A stretch of DNA of 32,000 bases, taken from assembly GCA_030167145.1 (NCBI GenBank), contig CP126532.1, positions 2,340,001-2,372,000 on the forward strand, written 5' to 3'. A model generated the notes under the pieces. That model did no database searches, was not told the DNA's origin, and saw nothing but the letters and a program-made list of their open reading frames with translations. The translations under genes were made by a program, and so were the position numbers. Of the stretch, positions 1,922 to 26,984 are shown one piece after another (position 1 is the first letter of the stretch; each line of letters opens with the position of its first letter). Origin of the DNA: Ktedonobacterales bacterium. Its GTDB lineage: Bacteria; Chloroflexota; Ktedonobacteria; Ktedonobacterales; JADMIN01.

Positions 1922-2497
1922 ATGAGCATTCCGCCGTCCGCACCGCTGCTGGTGGTGATTACCGGAGCACCCTGCACGGGCAAGACGACGCTGGGCCAGC
2001 GCCTCGCGGAGCGGTTCGCGCTGCCGCTGATCAGCAAAGACGGCATCAAGGAGATCCTCTTCGACACGCTGGGATGGTCGGACCGGGAGTGGTCGCGACG
2101 GCTGGGCGGCGCGAGTATGGCGCTGCTCTTCGCGATGGCCGAAGCACAGGTGCGCGCGGGGCGTTCGGCTATCATCGAGGCGAACTTTTCGCGCGGCTAT
2201 GACACGCCGCGCTTTGCGGATCTGCGAGCGCGGTATGTGTTTCGCACGCTGCAAATCGTCTGCGCCGCGCCGCCGGATGTGGTGGTGGAGCGGTACATGG
2301 CGCGCTGGGAGGCGGGCGAGCGGCATCCGGGGCATGTGGAGAGCGGGCAGCGTGACGAGCTGGCGGCGGCGCTGGGTGACGGACGCTACGGGCCGCTGGA
2401 GATGGGCGGCGAGGTGCTGACGCTGGATACGGCTGACCTCGGCGCTATCAGCTATGACGAGGTATTCGCAGCGGTGGCGCGGCTGCGCGAGCTATAA
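1922..2497 (+). CDS. P-loop NTPase / AAA_33-type kinase-like protein
   Basis: Walker A GAPCTGKTT near the N-terminus, followed by LISKDGIKE. About 190 aa, typical of small phosphotransferases of this fold. Confidence 0.85.
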   Translation: MSIPPSAPLLVVITGAPCTGKTTLGQRLAERFALPLISKDGIKEILFDTLGWSDREWSRRLGGASMALLFAMAEAQVRAGRSAIIEANFSRGYDTPRFADLRARYVFRTLQIVCAAPPDVVVERYMARWEAGERHPGHVESGQRDELAAALGDGRYGPLEMGGEVLTLDTADLGAISYDEVFAAVARLREL

Positions 2498-2531
2498 ACT
2501 GTGATTTGGGTTTATCATCATAAGTATTTAT

Positions 2532-2560
2532 TGGACTTTTGAACGAAGACGGTTTATACT
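2532..2560 (+). promoter_or_regulatory. sigma70-like promoter candidate (TGGACT-17 nt-TATACT)
   Basis: -35-like TGGACT at 2532-2537, 17-nt spacer, -10 TATACT at 2555-2560. No convincing ORF downstream. Confidence 0.3.
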
Positions 2561-2789
2561 CGCTCCTGTGATGAGGAACGTATGGGTTGGTTCCATACCG
2601 ATCATCCAAGGCGAGAACTCTGTGGGCGGTTTCCACATGATGTTCGCGCAAGCGGCATACGGGCTGATTTTCCGTAGTGGTCGCGGTGTGGGCGGGCTGA
2701 TTTCCGCACCACCACAGCGGCGGGGATGGCTGTTTCTCCTTCGCCACGCCAGCGTCGCGGGCTGCTTCCGCAGACTGGTCATCGCAATT

Positions 2790-2813
2790 GGGGCAAGCTA
2801 GGCTTGCCCCTTT
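2790..2813 (+). terminator. intrinsic-terminator-like hairpin
   Basis: GGGGCAAGC-tag-GCTTGCCCC (9-bp stem) followed by TTT on the plus strand. On the minus strand it lies about 50 nt after the 2863 stop but lacks a U-tract. Confidence 0.4.
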
Positions 2814-2862
2814 CGTGTGTCTGCGAGCAACTATTCCTACTCGCGAGTGGAGTGGCGATATG

Positions 2863-3627
2863 TTATTTGGGCAGGGGCAAGAGCATCCGCACACGCTGTT
2901 GGTAGATCTGATACACCTTCCCGAAGCTGGCGAGCAGATCGCGCTCTTCCAGGTGAATACCAAGCAGGATGTACGCAGTCATTGCTATCGCGAAGAGCAG
3001 GTGGCCGGTTGTCATGTGTGGGGTCGCCCAGAAGGCGAGGAGAAAACCTACCATCATCGGGTGACGCACCAACGTGTAGAGCGCTGGGGTTTTGAAATCA
3101 GTCGTGGTGTATTGCCTGGCCTGCCAATGGAGGTACACTTGACGAAGGCCAAATAGATCGAAGTGGTTGATCAAAAACGAGGAGATCAGGACGATAAGCC
3201 ACCCCACGACGTACAGGCCCAGCAGCGCCCAGCGCCAGGGTGTCTGCTCAACATTCCAGATGTCTCCGCGTATAGGAAGCCATTGCCAGTAGAGCAATAC
3301 TAGCGCCAGGCTGGCAAACAAGACATACGTGCTGCGCTCAATTGGAGGCGAGATGAAGCGCATCCACCACCGTTTGAAGGTGGCTCGAGCCATGATGCTG
3401 TGTTGCAGGGCAAAGAGGCTGAGCAACGCCACATCCACCAGAATCGCGTGCAGGGGCGAAGCCGTAGGGCCAGAGTCAAGGGATTTGGGAACATAGAGAT
3501 CGCCGACAAAGCCCGGCGTGTACACGAGGACACCCAAAAAGATCGTATAACAGAGCGCGCCGTATATGAGCGCCAATGTGGCATGTCCGCGCCGCGTGCT
3601 GGGTTTCGTATCGAAAAGTGTCGTCAT
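2863..3627 (-). CDS. ICMT/PEMT-superfamily membrane methyltransferase, MddA (methanethiol S-methyltransferase)-like
   Basis: Polytopic membrane protein with LQHSIMARATFKRWW, ERSTYVL and VRHPMMVGFLLAFWATP motifs characteristic of this methyltransferase family. RBS AGGAGG 7 nt before the ATG. Confidence 0.8.
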   Translation of the reverse strand: MTTLFDTKPSTRRGHATLALIYGALCYTIFLGVLVYTPGFVGDLYVPKSLDSGPTASPLHAILVDVALLSLFALQHSIMARATFKRWWMRFISPPIERSTYVLFASLALVLLYWQWLPIRGDIWNVEQTPWRWALLGLYVVGWLIVLISSFLINHFDLFGLRQVYLHWQARQYTTTDFKTPALYTLVRHPMMVGFLLAFWATPHMTTGHLLFAIAMTAYILLGIHLEERDLLASFGKVYQIYQQRVRMLLPLPK

Positions 3628-3870: not shown

Positions 3871-3943
3871 GCGAGATCATCCAAGATCATCCGAGATCAT
3901 CCAAGATCATCCGAGATCATCCGAGATCATCCGAGATCATCCA
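3871..3943. repeat. tandem repeat, 10-bp unit CCRAGATCAT x7 (plus partial)
   Basis: Sequence gcgagatcat ccaagatcat ccgagatcat ccaagatcat ccgagatcat ccgagatcat ccgagatcat cca. Each unit carries GATC. Intergenic, 63 nt upstream of ATG 4006. Confidence 0.97.
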
Positions 3944-4005
3944 TGCGAAGGGCAAGCATTGCATGGGGTAGGGTGTGAACTATCTACTGGAGAGGCGGGA
4001 ATAGG

Positions 4006-5607
4006 ATGGGCCAGCTCGCATTGCGCCTGTTCGGGGCGCCTCAAGTAGCCTACAATGGGCGGCTGATATCGCCGCGCTTTCAGAAAGAACTCGCGCTGCT
4101 CATCTACCTCGCGGGAACGAATCGTCCGCATACTCGCTTGGCGCTGGCAACCCTCTTCTGGCCGGAACATGACCAGTCAAGTGCGCTCGCGGCGCTGCGC
4201 CGAACCCTGTATCAGGCGAAGGTGGATACAGGAGAAGGCACGCTGGAGGTGACGCGGCAAACGGTCGGTTTCTCTGCTGAGACAGAGGTGCAGGTAGACA
4301 CACGGAGCTTTCTCACTGCCGGTCAGTTGTGTAGAGGACATGCCCATCCTCCACAGGCGCCATTCGCTTCGTGCGCTGCCTTGCTCGAAACGGCTATCAG
4401 GCTCTATGCTGACGATTTCTTGACCGGATTTTCTTTGCCAGACAGCCCTGTGTTCGATGAGTGGCAGTTTTTTGAACGGGAAGGATTGCGAGCCGAATAT
4501 TTGCGCATCGTGGCACTGCTGACGACGTACTATGAACGCCAACAGGCTTACGATCAAGCAGTAGAGATGGCGCGGCGCTGGCTCAGTCGCGAGCCATACC
4601 ACGAACCGGCCCATCGCGCGTTAATCCGCCTGTATACGCTGATGGGGCAACCTGCCGCAGCCGCGCGCCAATATGACCTCTGCAAGCGTCTGCTTTTCGA
4701 GCAACTGGGGGTGCAGCCGCATACGGAAACGGAACGGCTCTACCAAGCTATCAAAGATCAGGACAGAGACCTTGTGGTTCGCCAGGACACGCATTACACG
4801 CGACGGGGGACGACGTATCTGGCATACCAAACGATTGGTACGGGCGCCGTTGATGTGCTCGTCGTCGGCGGATTTATCTCGCATCTGGAGCAACTCTGGG
4901 AAGAGTCCGATCTCGCGGACTTCTATCAACGACTCGGCGCTCTAGCTCGCATCATCGTGTATGACAAATCTGGCGTTGGCCTGTCGGATCGCGCTGGCAC
5001 GGGGTCCTCACTAGACTACCAGATCGCCGATGCTCTGGCGATGATCCATTTGGCCAGATCGCGGCGTGTGATCATTTTCGCCGTCTCGGATGGGGCGGCG
5101 GCCGCCATTCAGATGGCGGTACGGTATCCGGAGCAGGTCGCCGGGCTGGTGATCTATGGGGGGCAGGCTAAAGGCGTCCAAAGCCCAGAGTACCCGTGGG
5201 GGTTGACGCCGGCACAGTATCAGCGCTGGATAGAGAAACTGGTGAAGGGGTGGGGGGGTCCAATCAATCTGGAGTACTTCGCGCCTTCACGAGCGCAGGA
5301 CCAGCGATTGCGTCAGTGGTGGGCGCAAACACAACGATTAGCGGCTAGTCCGGGGGCGGTGAAAGCGATTTTGGAGGGCATACGCGATGCGGATGTGCGT
5401 CCGCTCCTTGAGCACATTCGTGTTCCAACCTTGGTACTCCACCGGAGCGGCGACCGCTGTGTGCCGGTGGAGTCAGGACGCTATTTGGCGAGCCACATCC
5501 CCCAGGCGCGTTATGTGGAGCTTTCAGGGAACGACCACTGGTGGTGGATAGGCGATACGCGCCGCCTGATCGAAGAGCTCGAATACTTCATCGAACATCA
5601 GCGCTGA
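4006..5607 (+). CDS. SARP/AfsR-DnrI-type winged-helix + BTAD transcriptional activator fused to a C-terminal alpha/beta-hydrolase-fold domain
   Basis: The N-terminus LRLFGAPQV...LALLIYLA...ALATLFWPE matches an OmpR/SARP DNA-binding domain. DEWQFFEREGLRAEYLR...HRALIRLYTLMGQPAAAARQYDLCKRLLFEQLGVQP matches BTAD. The C-terminal ~270 aa has a hydrolase fold (VLVVGGF, FAVSDGAAAA nucleophile elbow, LHRSGDRCVP, GNDHW). Confidence 0.85.
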   Translation: MGQLALRLFGAPQVAYNGRLISPRFQKELALLIYLAGTNRPHTRLALATLFWPEHDQSSALAALRRTLYQAKVDTGEGTLEVTRQTVGFSAETEVQVDTRSFLTAGQLCRGHAHPPQAPFASCAALLETAIRLYADDFLTGFSLPDSPVFDEWQFFEREGLRAEYLRIVALLTTYYERQQAYDQAVEMARRWLSREPYHEPAHRALIRLYTLMGQPAAAARQYDLCKRLLFEQLGVQPHTETERLYQAIKDQDRDLVVRQDTHYTRRGTTYLAYQTIGTGAVDVLVVGGFISHLEQLWEESDLADFYQRLGALARIIVYDKSGVGLSDRAGTGSSLDYQIADALAMIHLARSRRVIIFAVSDGAAAAIQMAVRYPEQVAGLVIYGGQAKGVQSPEYPWGLTPAQYQRWIEKLVKGWGGPINLEYFAPSRAQDQRLRQWWAQTQRLAASPGAVKAILEGIRDADVRPLLEHIRVPTLVLHRSGDRCVPVESGRYLASHIPQARYVELSGNDHWWWIGDTRRLIEELEYFIEHQR

Positions 5608-5742: not shown

Positions 5743-5818
5743 CCTCTCAGGCGCGAAGCCAGGCTACCATTAACGTGCTTCATCGCGGTGTGTTGGCGGC
5801 GGAGAGGAGCGTACTGCT

Positions 5819-7504
5819 ATGGACCCTGCCCGGCGTCGAAGATTGCGTCTCCCTGTAGTGCTCACCTGTAATTTTCTGGTGCTCGCGTTTGTGCTCTCCT
5901 GCTGCAATCCTCCCAAGCCAGCGGCGATCCATGCGACGATTAGCCTGTGCGCGGTGGATGTGGCTCGCGCCGCTGACTTCCCGAATGACGCCTGCTATAC
6001 GGGAACGTTCCACGCGACGGGCGCCCAGCAGGCGCTGCACATCACGGCGGTGGACAAGAACGGCACGGCGCTGCCGAACGCACAGATCAAGGTGACGGTG
6101 GCGGGGGCGAACGCGCGCAGTGATAGCGTGACGACCGACGCGAGCGGCCAGGCGACATATCAGTATTCGGGCAGCCACACAGGGACGGATACGGTCAGCG
6201 CCACGCTGGGCAGCGATAGCGCCGCAAAGAGCGCGCATCCGGCGGTGATTCACTGGCTGGCGCAACAGCACGTGACGCATCCGGTGGTGCTGGTGCATGG
6301 CATCCAGGAGGACGCGACCGACTTCGCGCATCAGTTCGATCCGAGCGTGGTGGATAGCGATCAGGCGAGCGATGGCAGCAAACAGACGTGGACGGCGCTG
6401 ATCGAGGCGCTGAAGCTGACCTATGATCCCGCGTTTATGAAAGCCTTCTGCTACGTGGATGACGTGGCCTGGCGAACCACGCCGAGCGCGTGCCCAGCGG
6501 ATGAGGCGGCGCTGCGTGACTGCGACCCATCGCTGCCGCCGAGCAGCAGTGGCCCACCGTATCCGTGCATCAGCCAGGGGTCGGTGGATGAGAGCGCGGT
6601 GGCGCTGGCGCATGTGGTGGTGGATTTGAGCGCGGCGGCGGGCGGCAAGCCGGTGACGCTGCTGGCGTATAGCATGGGCGGCGCGGTCACGCGGACGCTG
6701 CTGGCGGGCTGTCTCAATTCGGCAGCCAGCGACCAGTCGCTCTGCCAGCAGGCGGCAGGCATGGTGAATGACACGATTTTTCTGGATGGCGCGCAGCAAG
6801 GCTCGTGGCTGCTGACGGTGAAACACGGCTTCAATGCGGCGACGCTCTCGGTGCAGAACATCACGCCGACGGCGCTGAGCGCGTTCAGTTCGGTGTTGCC
6901 GCTGATCGAGCAGAATATCTACGGCGTCGTCAACCAGAAGCTGGGCCTGAACCTGAATAATCCCGCAGAGACCGACCTGACGCCGCAGAGCGCGAATATT
7001 CTGGCGCACAACAGCGTGCAGCCCGCGACAAACGTGCAGATCTATACGTTCTACGGCGATGTGGAGTTCGGTATGGATGTGACGTACTTCATCTATACGC
7101 TGCCAGCAAATGCGTATTTGCCGATGGGCGATCTGGTGATGCTGGCTCAGGACGATAACCCGCTGGCCTCGCCGCTGTGGGGCGGTGGCTCGCTCTGCGA
7201 TAGCTGTGGGCCGCTGGTCAACGGCTATCACGAGAACGGGCGCTATCACGCCTGGGCGCTGAGGCAGAAATACACGGTCAACATCAATGGACTGGTTCCG
7301 ATACTGAGCGTGCCGGATGCGGTGTCGGCATTCCAGCAGGTGGTGAATTCGCCGGTGCAGCACTTGAATGTGTCGCAGCCGGTGACCCAGGCGCCCGGCA
7401 CGGCGATTCAGGTGGCCGATAGCACGCATCTGGCGGGCACGGCGACGACGGATATGCCATATGAAATTTTGCTGGTGCTGATGCATGGCGACGGCCTGAT
7501 CTAG
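5819..7504 (+). CDS. secreted (possibly lipoprotein) lipase/esterase-like alpha/beta hydrolase with N-terminal Ig-like (Big-type) domain
   Basis: Signal sequence ending VLSCC (lipobox-like). ITAVDKNGTALPNAQIKVTVAG...TTDASGQATYQYSG resembles a bacterial Ig-like domain. PVVLVHG oxyanion motif and AYSMGG nucleophile elbow. Confidence 0.8.
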   Translation: MDPARRRRLRLPVVLTCNFLVLAFVLSCCNPPKPAAIHATISLCAVDVARAADFPNDACYTGTFHATGAQQALHITAVDKNGTALPNAQIKVTVAGANARSDSVTTDASGQATYQYSGSHTGTDTVSATLGSDSAAKSAHPAVIHWLAQQHVTHPVVLVHGIQEDATDFAHQFDPSVVDSDQASDGSKQTWTALIEALKLTYDPAFMKAFCYVDDVAWRTTPSACPADEAALRDCDPSLPPSSSGPPYPCISQGSVDESAVALAHVVVDLSAAAGGKPVTLLAYSMGGAVTRTLLAGCLNSAASDQSLCQQAAGMVNDTIFLDGAQQGSWLLTVKHGFNAATLSVQNITPTALSAFSSVLPLIEQNIYGVVNQKLGLNLNNPAETDLTPQSANILAHNSVQPATNVQIYTFYGDVEFGMDVTYFIYTLPANAYLPMGDLVMLAQDDNPLASPLWGGGSLCDSCGPLVNGYHENGRYHAWALRQKYTVNINGLVPILSVPDAVSAFQQVVNSPVQHLNVSQPVTQAPGTAIQVADSTHLAGTATTDMPYEILLVLMHGDGLI

Positions 7505-11612: not shown

Positions 11613-12410
11613 ATGACCGCGATCTGTGTCGCGAATAACAAGGGCGGCGTCGGCAAGACGACCACCGCCGTCAACCTCGCCGCCGGGCTGGCCCGTCTCA
11701 ATTTCCGAGTCCTCGTGGTGGATGTGGATGGGCAGGCAAACGCTACGTATGCCCTGACCGGACGGGTACATCCCGTGCCGTCGCTCTATGATGTGCTGGT
11801 GGGCGACCGCAAGCTGGAAACTGTGCTGTGGAAGACCAACGAGGAGAACGTGTGGATTGTTCCTGGTGACGGGCGCTTGCAGAACGCCGATGTGGAGATG
11901 GCGTCGCGTCCGGGGCGGGAGTGGCGGCTGGCCAAGGCGCTCTACGGGCAGGACTTCGACTATATCATTTTGGATACGCCGCCGTCGCTGGGGGTGCTGA
12001 CGCAGAACGCGCTGGCCGCCGCGCATCGGGTGCTGATCCCGATTTCGCTGACGGAGTTCAGCCTGATTGGGATGGATAAGCTCGAAGCGACTATCGAAGA
12101 TCTGCGCGACCAGCTTGACCTGTATGATCTGGAGATCGCGGGGGTGGTGGCGACGTTCTACGAGAACACGACGACGGCGAATGAGACGTGGGGCATTCTG
12201 GAAAAGAAGTTTGAGGGGCGGATGCTGGAAACGCATATCCCCAAGAACCTCGATCTGGAGAAGGCGCACCGCGAGAACGAGAGCATTCTGAGCTTCGCGC
12301 CGAATAGCAGCGGCGGCCAGGCGTATATGCAGCTCGCACGGGAGGTAAAGCGACTTGTCCCAGCGCACACGCGCCCATACGACCGGCGGCGCTCCACGCA
12401 CTCCGCCTAA
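11613..12410 (+). CDS. parA: ParA/Soj-family partition ATPase
   Basis: Deviant Walker A NNKGGVGKTTTAVNLA, then VLVVDVDGQANAT and ILDTPPSLG (Walker B region). Confidence 0.92.
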   Translation: MTAICVANNKGGVGKTTTAVNLAAGLARLNFRVLVVDVDGQANATYALTGRVHPVPSLYDVLVGDRKLETVLWKTNEENVWIVPGDGRLQNADVEMASRPGREWRLAKALYGQDFDYIILDTPPSLGVLTQNALAAAHRVLIPISLTEFSLIGMDKLEATIEDLRDQLDLYDLEIAGVVATFYENTTTANETWGILEKKFEGRMLETHIPKNLDLEKAHRENESILSFAPNSSGGQAYMQLAREVKRLVPAHTRPYDRRRSTHSA

Positions 12411-12918
12411 GGCGAAGGCGACCAAGAACGCGGCGTCGCAACATACGACGCCAGCCACCGACACGGCAGAGCAGCGTGATACGGAGGCGCGGCTGCCGCT
12501 GGCGGCGGAGACGCTGGCGCGGACACTGCGCGCGGTGGCCGACGAACTGGAGCGCGACCCGGCGCTGGCGCGGCGCATCGCGGGGGCCGTGCGAGAGACG
12601 CCCACGGATGGGCCGTCCCCAGCAGAAGCGGCAGAGGAGCCAGCTACGCCGCCGAAGCGCCCCACACGCGCGTTCAAGCCGAAGCTGATCACCGGCGCTG
12701 GCCCGGAACTGGGCACGGGCATTCCCGACCCCTTCGCGCTGTACACTACGCTGGGCGAGGCGGGGCTGCGCGCGGCGCTGGATGAACTGCGGCTGGGCAC
12801 GCTGCGCGCGATGGTCCGCGAGCATGGGCTGGACCCCAGCGGACGCGCGAGCAAGCAGAACGATGCGGAGAAGCTGCGCGAGGTGATATTGCGGGCGGTG
12901 GCGGTGGCGAAGAGATAA
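12355..12918 (+). CDS. ParA-associated small protein (disordered basic N-terminus, helical C-terminal domain); possible centromere-binding/adaptor protein
   Basis: TTG start at 12355 sits 8 nt after a strong GGGAGGT and overlaps the parA 3' end by 56 nt. The C-terminus LRAALDELRLGTLRAMVREHGLDPSGRASKQNDAEKLREVILRAV resembles a helix-extended-helix (Rho_N/SAP-like) motif; that resemblance is weak inference. Confidence 0.6.
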   Translation: MSQRTRAHTTGGAPRTPPKAKATKNAASQHTTPATDTAEQRDTEARLPLAAETLARTLRAVADELERDPALARRIAGAVRETPTDGPSPAEAAEEPATPPKRPTRAFKPKLITGAGPELGTGIPDPFALYTTLGEAGLRAALDELRLGTLRAMVREHGLDPSGRASKQNDAEKLREVILRAVAVAKR

Positions 12919-12949
12919 ACTCCCCCTGGTAATTCGTGTGTCCGCATGC

Positions 12950-13177
12950 TATACTGCGTGGCAGAACAGAAGAGAACGTGCGATGGGCGTACCCGCGCCA
13001 ACGGATACGCCCATCTGACCCCGGCGCTGAGGCAACAGCGCGAGGGCTGCCCATAGGATAGCACGCGAGCGCGCATGACGCCTAGCTCGCCGCTGCTCCT
13101 ATCCCGCCCCCTTCGCATCTGCTCCCTCATCAGCGCCTCAAGTGAATTGGAGGCGTACCCCTATGCGATCCCCATGA
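12950..13177 (+). ncRNA. candidate structured RNA element, copy A (leader or sRNA) ending in SD + 4-codon mini-ORF
   Basis: TATACT at 12950-12955, a 10-bp hairpin at 12982-13015, and the conserved blocks TCTGACCCCGGCGCTGA (13014-13030), CAGCGCCTC (13131-13139) and GGAGGCGTACCCC (13149-13161). ATG 13163 opens MRSP-stop. Paralogous to 13782-14024. Confidence 0.45.
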
Positions 13178-13235
13178 CGGGTGTTTTCCGCTTATCGGCG
13201 CGATCCGCGTATATCGTCCTGTGGTGTTTCTTTTC

Positions 13236-13257
13236 GTGAGATATGCTCACCTTTTTC
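13236..13257 (+). terminator. weak terminator-like hairpin
   Basis: GTGAG-atatg-CTCAC followed by CTTTTTC. The stem is short (5 bp). Confidence 0.3.
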
Positions 13258-13405
13258 ACGCTCAAACGGAGGGAAAGGCTGCCTTTGTGGTAGCTCTCCT
13301 TGAATGCAGCGCTCTACTTTGCTATTGCTGGGGCAGTGCTGCTCAGCCTGAAATAATGAGCATTCGCGAAGAGATGGCGAAATTGATTGGCATGTGCGCA
13401 ACAAA

Positions 13406-13428
13406 GGGTATCACGTCATGTGATACCC
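13406..13428 (+). promoter_or_regulatory. perfect 9-bp inverted repeat (operator or RNA hairpin) just upstream of the SD of the short Ant-type gene
   Basis: GGGTATCAC-gtcat-GTGATACCC, followed by GGAGG (13433-13437) and ATG 13448. A positionally equivalent hairpin GCGTGTA-tga-TACACGC lies at 14173-14189. Confidence 0.4.
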
Positions 13429-13447
13429 CTGCGGAGGAACAAAATCC

Positions 13448-13762
13448 ATGGCAGATGAGCAAGGTGAGGTATTGATTCCTGTCGAGCAAACTTTGGTGTC
13501 GTTCCATGAGCGCCATATCGTGGCGGTTCGACTCTCTGACGGGCGCGTTGCCGCTGTTCTAAGTTCGTTGTGCGATGCACTGCAAATGCTTACGCGAGGT
13601 CAGGCACGACGCATCCACGCAGATGATGTGCTCAGCGAGCAACTCTTACCGGCCCGTATTGAGACGAGTGGTGGACCACAAACGATGGATGTGCTGACCG
13701 CTTGGGCAATTCCAACATGGTTGCGAAGTGCCCCAGTCTCCTGGACGGTACTTTGTGTGTGA
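13448..13762 (+). CDS. P22 Ant N-terminal-domain (P22_AR_N-like) protein, short/truncated paralog
   Basis: About 40% identity by eye to the N-terminus of 14236-15072 (VLIPVEQ..F..R.IVAVRLSDGRVAAVL..LC...MDVLT...IPTWL). It ends shortly after the domain, where the second repeat module begins. Confidence 0.65.
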   Translation: MADEQGEVLIPVEQTLVSFHERHIVAVRLSDGRVAAVLSSLCDALQMLTRGQARRIHADDVLSEQLLPARIETSGGPQTMDVLTAWAIPTWLRSAPVSWTVLCV

Positions 13763-13781
13763 CAATCGCATCGCATTATGG

Positions 13782-14024
13782 TATACTCGCCGCAGACATA
13801 CATGTGCGAACGCCGCCCGTGCTGGAAACACGAACGGCGCTCTGACCCCGGCGCTGAAGTTAGCAGCGGACAGGGCTTGTAGCAGCATAGCATGCGACAC
13901 GGGCAATAGCATAGACTCAACTGACATCACTCGCTCAAGCCGCACGCATCTTTGCTTCCCCTTTCCAATTTCTCACCCCAGCGCCTCCATATCCTAAGAG
14001 GAGGCGTACCCCATGGGAACTTGA
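13782..14024 (+). ncRNA. candidate structured RNA element, copy B (leader or sRNA) ending in SD + 3-codon mini-ORF
   Basis: GTGACA-17 nt-TATACT promoter (-10 at 13782-13787) and a hairpin at 13811-13839. Carries the same three conserved blocks at 13841-13857, 13979-13987 and 14000-14012. ATG 14013 opens MGT-stop. Confidence 0.45.
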
Positions 14025-14235
14025 TTCGTTTCCTGTGCAAGCCCCGGGCAAGCTCGATGAAGACACCACCTATTGGGCCGCACCTGCGCCCAAAAGTATC
14101 GCAGAAGGTTCATAGCGGTGTTCTGCGCTAGCGTCAGCGCGATCATATGGTAGCGAGGCGCATATGGGTGGGGCGTGTATGATACACGCGCGCTCCCTTG
14201 CTAGGTGAAAAATTGAGCACAGAAAGGCTGAACAC

Positions 14236-15072
14236 ATGGGAACTGACAGCGGGCAGGGGATGGGCGTATTAACGCCGGTAGACCAAGCCTCTATCCCATT
14301 CTATGGCCGCGACCTGATTGCGGTCCGACTTGCGGACGGTCGGGTATGCGCGGTGTTACGTTGGCTGTGCGAAGGCATGGGGCTGGATAGTAACGCGCAA
14401 TTACAGCGTATCAAGCGGAAAACAGCGCTACGCGACGATCTGGTACATGTACGGGTTATGACAGAGTATGGCGAAGCGCCTATGGCCGCACTCACCTTGC
14501 ATGGCTTACCAGGCTGGCTCTATGGCATAGACGAAACGCGGTTAGCGAAAGCAGAAGCACGTGCAGCCGTCATTCTATTTCAGCGCGAAGCTACGGATGT
14601 ACTTGCACGTCACTTCGAGCGCCGTCCAGCGGATCCACCTGCACCGCCAGACCTCGTGCCTGCCGAGCCGATCACCAAGCCCGAAGCACCGGGCGAAGGC
14701 GCGCCGTTTTCAGCCTGGCGCGCGTACTATCAAGGGATGCTCGCGTTCATAGATTGGCAAGCCGCTATTGAGCAGTGGCGCGGGTCGGTCGAAAGTCGGC
14801 TGGAGGGTGTCGAGGAGATCACGCGGCTGGTGCCGGAGATTCTCGACCGGCTGGGGCCGCAGACGCTGACGCCGGAGCATCAAGCAACGGTGAAGGCGTC
14901 AGCGAAGCGGCTAAATGAACTGACCGGCATCGCCTACGCGACGATCTATGGCGAGCTAAATGAGGCGTTCCATGTGGGCAAGTACAGCGACGTACCAGAG
15001 AGCCGCTGGCTGGATGTGGCGGCGTGGTTGCGGGCGCGGATAGCGGCTGCTGAGAAGCGCCACACGTCGTGA
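14236..15072 (+). CDS. phage antirepressor-like protein (P22 Ant N-terminal domain + helical C-terminal region)
   Basis: IPFYGRDLIAVRLADGRVCAVLRWLCEGMGLDSNAQLQRIKR...MAALTLHGLPGWLYGIDETRL follows the P22_AR_N pattern (vpF.G..., GLd...Q, gWL..I). Confidence 0.85.
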   Translation: MGTDSGQGMGVLTPVDQASIPFYGRDLIAVRLADGRVCAVLRWLCEGMGLDSNAQLQRIKRKTALRDDLVHVRVMTEYGEAPMAALTLHGLPGWLYGIDETRLAKAEARAAVILFQREATDVLARHFERRPADPPAPPDLVPAEPITKPEAPGEGAPFSAWRAYYQGMLAFIDWQAAIEQWRGSVESRLEGVEEITRLVPEILDRLGPQTLTPEHQATVKASAKRLNELTGIAYATIYGELNEAFHVGKYSDVPESRWLDVAAWLRARIAAAEKRHTS

Positions 15073-26260: not shown

Positions 26261-26572
26261 TTAGCGGGTTTCGCTGGGAGTAGGGTGTTGAGGTAGGAGA
26301 CCGATAAGTCCCCTGAGCGCGCGATTGACCGCTTCCGAATCTGGGAAATACGCACGCACATCTGGATCTAGCACAACGGTTCCCGCTCGCGGCGCAATTT
26401 CACGGACTTCCCTCGTGCCGTCGCTTCTCTGGATGACCATCGTATAGCCGTTGCGCATAGCTATGGCATGTTTGCCTTGTATACTGTGCGAAAAGTCATA
26501 TTCTGGAGCCATACTGTCGTCTTGGTCCTGTTGATCCTGTTGGTCTTGACCACTAGATCTCTTGTTGCTCAT
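26261..26572 (-). CDS. brnA: BrnA-like antitoxin
   Basis: ATG 26572 behind GGAGA. PEYDFSHSIQGKHA... and VVLDPDVRAYFPDSEAVNRALRGLI match the antitoxin pattern usually paired with DUF497/BrnT toxins. A QDQQDQQDQDD low-complexity insert is present. Confidence 0.65.
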   Translation of the reverse strand: MSNKRSSGQDQQDQQDQDDSMAPEYDFSHSIQGKHAIAMRNGYTMVIQRSDGTREVREIAPRAGTVVLDPDVRAYFPDSEAVNRALRGLIGLLPQHPTPSETR

Positions 26573-26735
26573 AGGTTCTCCGTTCGGCTCCGGTGGCCAG
26601 TCGGCAACTAATGATGCGAATGGTTTCATCTTGTTCGGTGTAGATTACCACGAGGAGACGGTGCCTCGTGGAGTAGCGCGCGTCACAGGAAACGCTGAGT
26701 GGTATACTGGCTGTGCGTGATGGGAGGGCGATATG
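26553..26735 (-). pseudogene. brnT: 5'-truncated brnT (DUF497) toxin remnant
   Basis: My translation reads ...DARYSTRHRLLVVIYTEQDETIRIISCRLATGAERRTYEQQEI-stop, matching the C-terminal half of BrnT (vv.t.r...iRIISaR.At..Er..Y). The frame is closed by TAG at 26736-38, has no plausible start, and the N-terminal ~35 aa are missing. Confidence 0.55.
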
Positions 26736-26948
26736 CTAGACGAGCGACTTCAGGGACTCCTGCAACATCTCGAACAACTTGCGCCCGATCAGCAGCAGAG
26801 GCTCGCAGACTACATTGAGGAATGGCTGGATGAGTTGGAATGGCAACGCATCCTCAACGAGCCAGGTCCAGATGCGTTGTATGAGGCTGCTATCAAGGAA
26901 ATGCAATTAGGGGAGACACATCCCCTGCGGCGCTGGGATTTCGTATAA
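26733..26948 (+). CDS. orphan antitoxin-like protein, paralog of 22825-23052
   Basis: RBS GGGAGGG before the ATG. LLQHLEQLAPDQQQRLADYIEEWLDELEWQRILNEPGPDALY aligns with AAAEKLPPNEQEQLAALWEETLLDNVRWHELFRQPGSQAFF. No toxin ORF follows. Confidence 0.55.
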   Translation: MLDERLQGLLQHLEQLAPDQQQRLADYIEEWLDELEWQRILNEPGPDALYEAAIKEMQLGETHPLRRWDFV

Positions 26949-26984
26949 GAGGCATAAGCTCCCGTATACCCAGTATATACGGCC

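Follow-up and report, generated by a model that had tools for sequence, protein, structure and literature searches.

A predicted sense/antisense leader module before antirepressor-like genes of Ktedonobacterales

The subject of this work is a duplicated leader element in a 32,000-nt stretch of DNA from a Ktedonobacterales bacterium (assembly GCA_030167145.1, contig CP126532.1, positions 2,340,001 to 2,372,000), which we call the window and from whose first base its positions are counted. Two copies of the element, A (12947-13177) and B (13759-14024), have three exact blocks in common, in the same order, and a P22_AR_N (Ant-like) gene lies downstream of each. On balance, and with little confidence to spare, we think that the element is a sense/antisense module, in which a predicted antisense RNA would control a translational switch in the leader, and not a metabolite riboswitch. 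The promoter motifs, the hairpins and their favoured strand, and the covarying long-range and Shine-Dalgarno (SD)-sequestering helices rest on sequence comparison; the production of the two RNAs, their ends and the direction of regulation are what we infer from them. The family to which the copies belong is, as its homologues indicate, a real, undescribed and Ktedonobacteria-specific regulatory module located before antirepressor-like genes.

The two copies were singled out in an initial annotation made from the letters of the window, and all the sequence features that it described are found. TATACT boxes lie at 12950-12955 in copy A and at 13782-13787 in copy B, and as promoter parts they belong to a conserved extended -10 motif, TGCTATACT; in copy B the box completes a GTGACA-17-TATACT promoter with 10 of 12 matches and a TG before the -10. 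The block 1 17-mer TCTGACCCCGGCGCTGA (13014-13030 and 13841-13857) has no other match in the window even with up to 3 mismatches (chance expectation 0.17), and block 2, CAGCGCCTC (13131-13139 and 13979-13987), and block 3, GGAGGCGTACCCC (13149-13161 and 14000-14012), are also exact, in diverged surroundings that bring the overall identity of the copies to 67%. A hairpin beside block 1 keeps its position and changes its sequence (12982-13015 in A, 13808-13842 in B), and a second hairpin, GCGCTG-loop-CAGCG, is seen in both copies. As had been said, no reading frame is conserved: loop-length differences are not multiples of 3, and the sole candidate small open reading frame (ORF) is without coding constraint. 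Two of the claims survive in part. Both downstream ORFs match Pfam P22_AR_N, but the elements are not directly upstream of them, with block 3 lying 286 nt from the Ant start codon in A and 223 nt in B. A function at the RNA level, as opposed to neutral duplication, agrees with the existence of homologues and with strong covariation in the hairpin, but a riboswitch-like aptamer confined to the sense strand is not supported. The annotation overlooked that the blocks are complementary to one another, block 1 to block 2 and block 2 to the SD sequence of block 3, and this complementarity is the core of the switch.

How far does the family extend? A covariance model built from homologues gives copy A 92 bits (E ~ 3e-23) and copy B 85 bits (E ~ 3e-21), scores that place both beyond chance. 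Further copies bring the number of distinct homologous sequences to 16, with scores of 59-102 bits, all in Ktedonobacterales genomes or soil metagenomes; individual loci are cited below by L numbers. DNA pattern scans located the element in two Ktedonobacterales metagenome-assembled genomes (L038 and L095; among the matches listed) and in nine soil-metagenome contigs. A genome-wide 19-base pattern was too loose, for of at least 120 loci, among the matches listed, 118 are chance occurrences in GC-rich genomes, L038 and L095 being real. A covariance model, R1, built from 14 copies, was then run on fetched loci of Ant-like proteins and found the element at 7 of 13, so that the leader as a universal feature of the Ant-like gene family is rejected. 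The 278-aa gene itself has at least 327 protein homologues, and those with a source name are from Ktedonobacterales (Chloroflexota).

Searches of collections of known elements came back empty. Rfam 15 at gathering thresholds has 0 families in the entire window, the region of the element included, in line with the earlier opinion that no known riboswitch class is present. Permissive thresholds give only chance-level matches in the region (ctRNA_pGA1 at 16 bits against a gathering score of 45, and SymR, discussed below), with no recurrent match on 6 homologous loci; a tRNA/tmRNA search found none. There is no blastn match to the element in GenBank phages or PLSDB plasmids, IMG/VR has neither a pattern nor a protein match, and in the published literature we found no relevant paper on such an element or on Ktedonobacterales regulatory RNA. 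The neighbours are chromosomal housekeeping genes, in the window those for ParA, a BTAD-hydrolase, an amino-acid permease, an ABC transporter and a HAD hydrolase. With no phage, plasmid or IMG/VR match and such neighbours, a phage or plasmid origin is rejected, and the window is not a prophage. The homologues are in unrelated chromosomal contexts: sucCD/ftsH, protein kinase/sigma factor, phospholipase D, and glycosyltransferase/ABC transporter.

The anatomy of the leader is common to all copies. Read on the plus strand, the order is extended -10 TGCTATACT, GNGCGA, hairpin P1, CUGAC, hairpin P2, AGGGCU, the foot of hairpin P3, a C/U-rich linker, block 2, hairpin P4 and a start codon, with 9-22 nt (mostly ~11; 22 in A and 16 in B) between the extended -10 and the invariant GNGCGA. 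P2 has the form CCC-G-GCGCUG, a variable 6-8-nt loop, and CAGCGC-GA-GGG; its loops are hypervariable between copies, and three of its pairs have compensatory changes of their own (L134, L135). A near-invariant AG(G/C/A)AUA(G/A/C/U)CA marks the base of P3, a long variable hairpin whose basal stem has one covarying position (G-C, C-G and A-U among subtypes) and which is only a 4-bp hairpin in L134. The consensus of block 2 is N'CAGCGCCUC, and the 3' arm of P4 is the SD sequence, block 3. Two further pairings of the 5' GUGC were tried and rejected, one with GCAC of the P3 arm (a manual check on alignment A3) and one with GCGC of block 2 (suggested by RNAalifold), both having uncompensated mismatches in L135, L136 and L038.

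The hairpin beside block 1, P1, covaries strongly, with double changes in 13 of its 14 pairs, and raises the question of which strand is under selection. On the plus strand its cells comprise 171 Watson-Crick pairs and 2 G·U, and the 23 mismatches are all A·C or C·A. An A·C mismatch turns into G·U when the opposite strand is read, and the helix is therefore near-perfect on the minus strand, where 99.1% of cells across 16 sequences are paired as against 88.3% on the plus strand. The A·C/C·A cells are spread across nine columns and several lineages, so the mismatches are not a single inherited event. The mean free energy (dG) of P1 is ~ -18 kcal/mol on plus versus -27 on minus, making it ~9 kcal/mol more stable on the minus strand. 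Fold z-scores behave alike, at -3.77 on minus versus -2.78 on plus for copy A, and -2.22 versus -0.53 for copy B, and as a control, a second hairpin class of these loci ("type-2") is without such strand asymmetry. The pair counts indicate that P1 is selected for pairing on the minus strand.

A promoter for that strand may be found within the leader. On the minus strand, the sequence of the invariant block AGGAUAGCA becomes TGCTATCCT, a match to TGnTA(T/A)nCT, which is the same extended -10 as that of the sense promoter and faces it. The sense motif, TGnTAYAnY or a near variant, is present in 15 of 16 homologues, with CGTATGCT in its place in L134; the antisense -10 is conserved in 15 of the 16 copies, and L134 has instead TACAAT at the same 6-nt distance from AGCCCU. 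Within the antisense -10, TG, T1, A2 and T6 never vary; variation is seen at the spacer base and at positions 3 and 4 of the hexamer. TG, T1, A2 and T6 are the positions that matter most in sigma-70 extended -10 promoters. The block is kept even where it is unpaired in P3 (L121, L038), and a conserved CUAG within the otherwise variable P3 sits at the -35 position of the antisense promoter. TGnTAWnCT has 8 matches in the window versus 3.2 expected, and the elements account for four of the 8, with one sense and one antisense site in each copy. A putative antisense promoter inside the leader would accordingly be placed to face the sense promoter, the two converging ~100 bp apart. Because P1 is near-perfect only on the minus strand and the conserved block is a predicted minus-strand promoter, the conserved 5' half of the element is best read as a small antisense RNA gene.

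Might the facing promoters act mainly by transcriptional interference, with the minus-strand hairpins serving only as terminator or insulator for the sense promoter and having no part in RNA-RNA pairing? Two conserved convergent promoters so close together invite the idea, as does the position on the minus strand of SL2, the complement of P1, immediately before the sense promoter. Interference leaves unexplained, however, why the sense strand has a covarying long-range helix and a covarying P4, and why SL1, the complement of P2, keeps its stem while its loops vary, and we regard it as improbable.

The antisense RNA predicted by the sense/antisense module would start 6-8 nt downstream of the minus-strand -10, that is, at AGCCCU. 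Its make-up in copy A would be 5' AGCCCU, SL1, a linker GGGGUCAG, SL2, and UCGCAC with a U-enriched tail. A sub-threshold Rfam match to SymR (27.9 bits; gathering 61) runs end to end over 13805-13877 on the minus strand, in copy B only, and is a similarity of shape only. Could the minus-strand RNA be the main product, a trans-acting small RNA or the antitoxin-like RNA of a type I toxin-antitoxin pair, whose shared 17-nt core acts across copies or on other targets? The core is identical in paralogues that otherwise have 67% identity, and the shape is SymR-like. Against this, no conserved small toxin ORF is present, the candidate ORF after block 3 being without coding constraint, and the SymR score is well below gathering and limited to copy B; we consider such a function quite improbable.

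On the sense strand, block 1 has a second partner. An 8-bp long-range helix joins GGCGCUG and the first base of the P2 loop to block 2 (N'CAGCGCC); tested on alignment A4, from which P3 was cut out, it is paired in 97.3% of cells and has double changes at four pairs, a number reached by 0 of 500 shuffles, with slid controls at 1 or fewer. The first loop base and the base before block 2 form A-U four times, G-C eight times and U·G once, window copy B alone having a mismatch; the local hairpin cannot account for this position. Independent compensations are found in L136 (GACGCUG with CAGCGUC) and L134 (GGCGCUA with UAGCGCC). The pairing of P4 with the SD sequence is likewise kept with changed sequences, as GCGCCUC/GAGGCGU, CGCCUUUU/GAAAGGCG in L124, CGCCUCGC/GCGAGGCG in L134 and GCGUCUCC/GGAGGCGU in L133. 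Block 2 uses its GCGCC in the long-range helix as well as in P4, and the two pairings, which overlap there, are mutually exclusive. When forced, the two states are 0-9 kcal/mol apart, and either can be the minimum free energy structure. Of the covarying helices, P1 has its preference for the antisense strand, and the sense strand can accommodate P2 and the long-range helix.

Such a two-state architecture, with a covarying anti-sequestor and sequestor, is also what a sense-strand riboswitch or protein-binding leader would have, in which P1, the linker, P2 and P3 sense a ligand or factor whose binding selects either P4 or the long-range helix; the match to an antisense promoter would then be incidental. 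That explanation gains from the invariant unpaired GUGCGA, CUGAC and AGGGCU, for which cis-antisense pairing does not account, and from the sharing of one leader by three unrelated gene types (P22_AR_N, Bro-N-like and Cas1), which suggests a common signal. It must contend with the absence of an Rfam family match and with a main covarying helix that has A·C mismatches when read as sense RNA but is perfect as antisense. The AGGAUAGCA block, moreover, is promoter-like, being replaced by TACAAT in L134 and kept where unpaired, and the hypervariable loops fit antisense specificity determinants. A metabolite riboswitch is possible but less well supported than the antisense switch, and we hold any sense-strand sensor of this kind to be unlikely.

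How would the antisense-controlled switch work? The sense promoter TGCTATACT would start a leader of ~200 nt, and ~100 bp downstream the facing promoter TGCTATCCT, on the opposite strand, would start an antisense RNA of ~85 nt, comprising a conserved stem with a copy-specific loop (SL1), the linker GGGGUCAG and the GC-rich 14-bp SL2, which probably ends or stabilises it. This RNA would match, by perfect complementarity, the ~85 nt with which the sense leader begins. Within that leader, block 1 (GGCGCUGN) could pair locally, in P2, or long-range with block 2 (N'CAGCGCC); block 2, when free of block 1, would pair with the SD sequence in P4. Antisense pairing would sequester block 1, whereupon block 2 would close P4 over the ribosome-binding site and turn translation off; when antisense RNA is scarce, the long-range helix would form and leave the ribosome-binding site free. 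Collision of the converging polymerases may add to the effect. In silico blocking of the 5' 85 nt lowers SD accessibility from 0.22 to 0.01 in L126 and from 0.13 to 0.02 in L124, a modest change in the direction of the model.

Several observations weigh against this mechanism. Both promoters and both RNA ends are deduced from sequence, and the comparison rests on 16 sequences, several of which are closely related. The tail after SL2 is modestly U-rich at best, its 8 nt having ~41% U (1-5 U's), and falls short of a canonical terminator. In L135 the local hairpin is fully compensated and the long-range helix only partly (6 of 8 pairs), and the same in silico block produces no change in window copy A or B, the SD sequence being in general mostly paired with or without the block. 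The near-total conservation of CUGACCCC and GUGCGA goes beyond the need of cis complementarity. Finally, the window copies, L095, L123, L131 and L150 have no real gene after the P4 SD; in the window only 3-4-codon ORFs follow it, of which that of copy A is possibly the vestige of an ancestral gene start. Those copies have interposed sequence, and because their Ant ORF lies 220-430 nt downstream with its own SD, coupling of the switch to Ant translation is uncertain there. In the window the target of the module may be transcription or the stability of the RNA, or the module may be partly vestigial.

The interposed region has features of its own. A motif TTTCCGC-N17-19-TAT(A/C)TC lies between leader and Ant gene at 13192-13225 of the window and also in L095, L150, L123, L131 and L147, and may be a second sense promoter. 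A small protein encoded after block 3 (window 13184-13249, with like ORFs in L095 and L150) was considered and rejected: L095 and L150 differ by non-synonymous changes only, with a frameshift as well, and no SD is present. As this overlapping ORF is without coding constraint, we read the conservation at 13184-13249 as that of the promoter-like motif. An intrinsic terminator after the element on the plus strand was also rejected, the one weak site (13236-13250) being at chance level and not conserved.

Could the element function as DNA, or be a decaying duplicated promoter-leader without RNA function? As in operators, the arms of the inverted repeat GGCGCTG-N7-CAGCGC are conserved and its spacer varies, and block 3 in the window no longer precedes a real gene. 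Against it stand extensive compensation in P1 together with compensation in P2 and the long-range helix, a strand-specific wobble bias, and conservation at 16 loci in unrelated genomic contexts, and we think this explanation very improbable. Coordinates of the features of both copies are collected in Table 1.

Table 1. Features of element copies A and B and of their downstream genes in the window
Feature	Position	Strand	Remarks
Sense promoter A	12947-12955	+	Extended -10 TGCTATACT; TGnTAYAnY family motif
P1/SL2 hairpin A	12982-13015	-	14 bp; dG -21.7 plus, -27.1 minus
Predicted antisense RNA A	13048 to ~12965	-	~85 nt; both ends deduced
Block 1 A	13014-13030	+	UCUGACCCCGGCGCUGA; linker CUGAC, lower P2 stem CCC, and GGCGCUGA (13023-13030), the 5' strand of the long-range helix
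P2/SL1 hairpin A	13020-13046	either	CCC-G-GCGCUG, 6-nt variable loop, CAGCGC-GA-GGG
P3 hairpin A, long and variable	13053-13103	+	Its DNA carries the predicted antisense promoter: -10, plus CTAG block at the -35 position
Antisense promoter A (predicted)	13055-13063	-	Extended -10 TGCTATCCT; plus-strand AGGAUAGCA
Block 2 A	13130-13139	+	UCAGCGCC (13130-13137), the 3' strand of the long-range helix; GCGCCUC (13133-13139), the P4 5' arm
P4 hairpin A	13133-13156	+	GCGCCUC, loop, GAGGCGU; encloses SD GGAGG of block 3 (13149-13161)
Mini-ORF A	13163-13177	+	AUG CGA UCC CCA UGA; follows block 3 SD
Gene A, truncated P22_AR_N (Ant-like)	13448-13762	+	104 aa; E = 1.4e-7, profile positions 3-80 of 115
Sense promoter B	13759-13787	+	GTGACA-17-TATACT with TG; TGGTATACT at 13779-13787
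P1/SL2 hairpin B	13808-13842	-	Three plus-strand A·C/C·A mismatches become G·U on minus; dG -13.6 plus, -25.4 minus
Predicted antisense RNA B	13877 to ~13795	-	~83 nt; both ends deduced
Block 1 B	13841-13857	+	Long-range 5' strand GGCGCUGA at 13850-13857
P2/SL1 hairpin B	13847-13875	either	GCGCTG-loop-CAGCG hairpin
Antisense promoter B (predicted)	13884-13892	-	TGCTATGCT; TGnTA(T/A)nCT match
Block 2 and P4 B	13978-14007	+	Block 2 CCAGCGCC at 13978-13985; P4 GCGCCUCC, loop, GGAGGCGU at 13981-14007, holds block 3 SD
Mini-ORF B	14013-14024	+	AUG GGA ACU UGA; follows block 3 SD
Gene B, full-length P22_AR_N (Ant-like)	14236-15072	+	278 aa; PF10547 E = 8e-20; phrog_524 anti-repressor Ant 1.7e-23

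The genes that follow the leader are mostly P22_AR_N genes, with three small Bro-N-like genes and one lone cas1 gene, in L134. The start codon of a real gene follows the P4 SD in L038, L124, L126, L127, L130 and L134. A Bro-N assignment for the second gene type was rejected; the fragments have no Pfam match and one full-length homologue reaches 24.2 bits, below the cut-off of 25.6, and the label is therefore limited to "Bro-N-like". In L134 (1290-3870) a minimal leader without the long P3 stands directly before a 485-aa Cas1-only gene (Pfam Cas_Cas1, 1.9e-41), which is followed by an Ant-like gene; no further cas gene was called in the 6.9-kb stretch fetched. From its leader, the lone Cas1 is predicted to be under the same RNA control. 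Gene A of the window ends after 104 aa exactly at the copy B promoter, and the tandem layout of a truncated and then a full gene recurs in other Ktedonobacterales contigs, L144-L146.

Facing promoters at an antirepressor gene recall phage P22, in which Pant and Psar are said, in work of Liao et al. from 1987, to be arranged face to face, sar being 68-69 nt long. The regulated gene here has the same N-terminal domain as P22 Ant (PF10547), and, as with the antisense RNA sar that controls ant in P22 (PMC2629481), a small antisense RNA is predicted, its promoter lying in the ant leader and pointing towards the sense promoter. A relative, L148, has an Arc-family gene directly upstream of its Ant-like gene. 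The differences from P22 are also plain. The element has no sequence or Rfam similarity to sar, and it is chromosomal and outside a prophage (with ParA, permease, ABC transporter, FtsH and sucCD as neighbours), in several paralogous copies. The predicted RNA covers leader positions ~1-85 and not the ribosome-binding site, the SD lying ~100 nt further downstream, so it would act indirectly, via an alternative structure. No Arc or Mnt gene is present in the window, the Arc gene being found only in the leader-less relative L148. In that locus (2247-3334) the 69-aa Arc-family gene precedes the leader-less Ant-like gene in the arc-ant order of P22 immunity I, on the chromosome beside glutamine synthetase.

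The second comparison is with plasmid countertranscripts. In IncB and IncI-alpha plasmids an antisense RNA blocks an activator pseudoknot, and in pT181 and pIP501 there is antisense-induced attenuation (PMC5415839). As in those systems, a stem-loop antisense RNA, here predicted, is complementary to a 5' leader with two exclusive folds, and a 5' segment must pair downstream to prevent an inhibitory structure, antisense binding removing that segment (PMC5415839). Exclusive folds are indeed found here, in that the block 1:block 2 pairing covaries and the block 2:SD pairing is kept with changed sequences, and the variable loops on conserved stems resemble incompatibility determinants. Unlike the plasmid systems, the genes here are Ant-like, Bro-N-like or Cas1 and not replication genes, the proposed output is SD sequestration and not termination (there is no terminator after P4), and there is neither sequence homology nor a match to plasmid records, nor a demonstrated leader-peptide coupling. 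Membership in either the P22 sar or the countertranscript families is denied by the lack of sequence similarity, the uncovered ribosome-binding site, the non-phage, non-plasmid setting and the non-terminator output.

Two other known systems bear comparison. SymR of SymR/SymE (RF01809) is a ~75-nt two-hairpin RNA opposite the 5' untranslated region of its target, and its model aligns end to end with predicted antisense RNA B; the low score and the absence of a match in copy A and the homologues make this a resemblance of shape only. Translational riboswitches have mutually exclusive anti-sequestor and sequestor helices, as does the element, with support from covariation; they differ in that no known aptamer class matches, and an antisense RNA gene is the better explanation for the half that might have been a sensor. 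The element is best classed as an antisense-controlled leader switch, a new variant lacking homology to those described.

Other features of the window and the loci deserve mention. Most P22_AR_N genes of Ktedonobacterales, whether or not they have the large leader, have a second conserved hairpin immediately 5' of their SD. It has the form (UUAC)ACAAAGGG(G)-N5-8-(A/G)UCAU or AUGAU-N5-8-(C)CCCUU, with a covarying stem, a loop in either orientation and no strand bias. It occurs in the window at 13403-13430 and ~14168-14198, in L131 at 5790-5990 (three tandem copies), in L134 at 2987, L135 at 2986, L144 at 2482 and L154 at 1956, and the block 2:SD helix encloses it in L038, L126, L127 and L135. 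The fifth TGnTAWnCT match of the window, at 26700, is 26 nt before an unlisted, SD-preceded small ORF. It is part of a divergent pair of TGGTAWnCT extended -10 boxes (26642-26708), of which the minus box is 13 nt before ORF 26261-26629 and the plus box, near 26700, precedes the unlisted ~71-aa ORF 26734-26949, which has a good SD and of which it is the predicted driver. At 3872-3953 an ~80-nt tandem run of about eight units of the 10-nt CGAGATCATC (A/G variant) lies 50 nt upstream of gene 4006-5607, whose product joins a BTAD transcription-activator domain and an alpha/beta hydrolase. A possible partition pair precedes copy A immediately (11613-12918), formed by a gene for a ParA-type ATPase and, overlapping it, an ORF of 187 aa without family match.

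What might the module mean for its hosts? The shared 17-nt core (CUGACCCCGGCGCUG and its complement) would let each antisense RNA touch the leader of every copy, the variable loops giving copy specificity. The outcome would be a network, an "immunity group" based on RNA and outside any phage, in which many antirepressor-like regulators of the chromosome are coordinated, along with one lone Cas1 or more; we offer this as a speculation that is doubtful at present. The two -10 boxes and the three complementary blocks, being mutable elements, offer a way to probe the role of the abundant P22_AR_N genes. For riboswitch hunting there is a caution, in that covariation and conserved blocks in a 5' leader can stem from a gene on the other strand, and counts of G·U versus A·C pairs reveal the strand under selection. 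If confirmed, the module would be the first regulatory RNA family that we have found described for Ktedonobacterales, a group with essentially no RNA biology on record. It would also be a case in which the phage principle of an antisense RNA restraining an antirepressor has been rebuilt from unrelated sequence, with antisense control fused to a structural switch, as in plasmid copy-number control, and spread over chromosomal paralogues.

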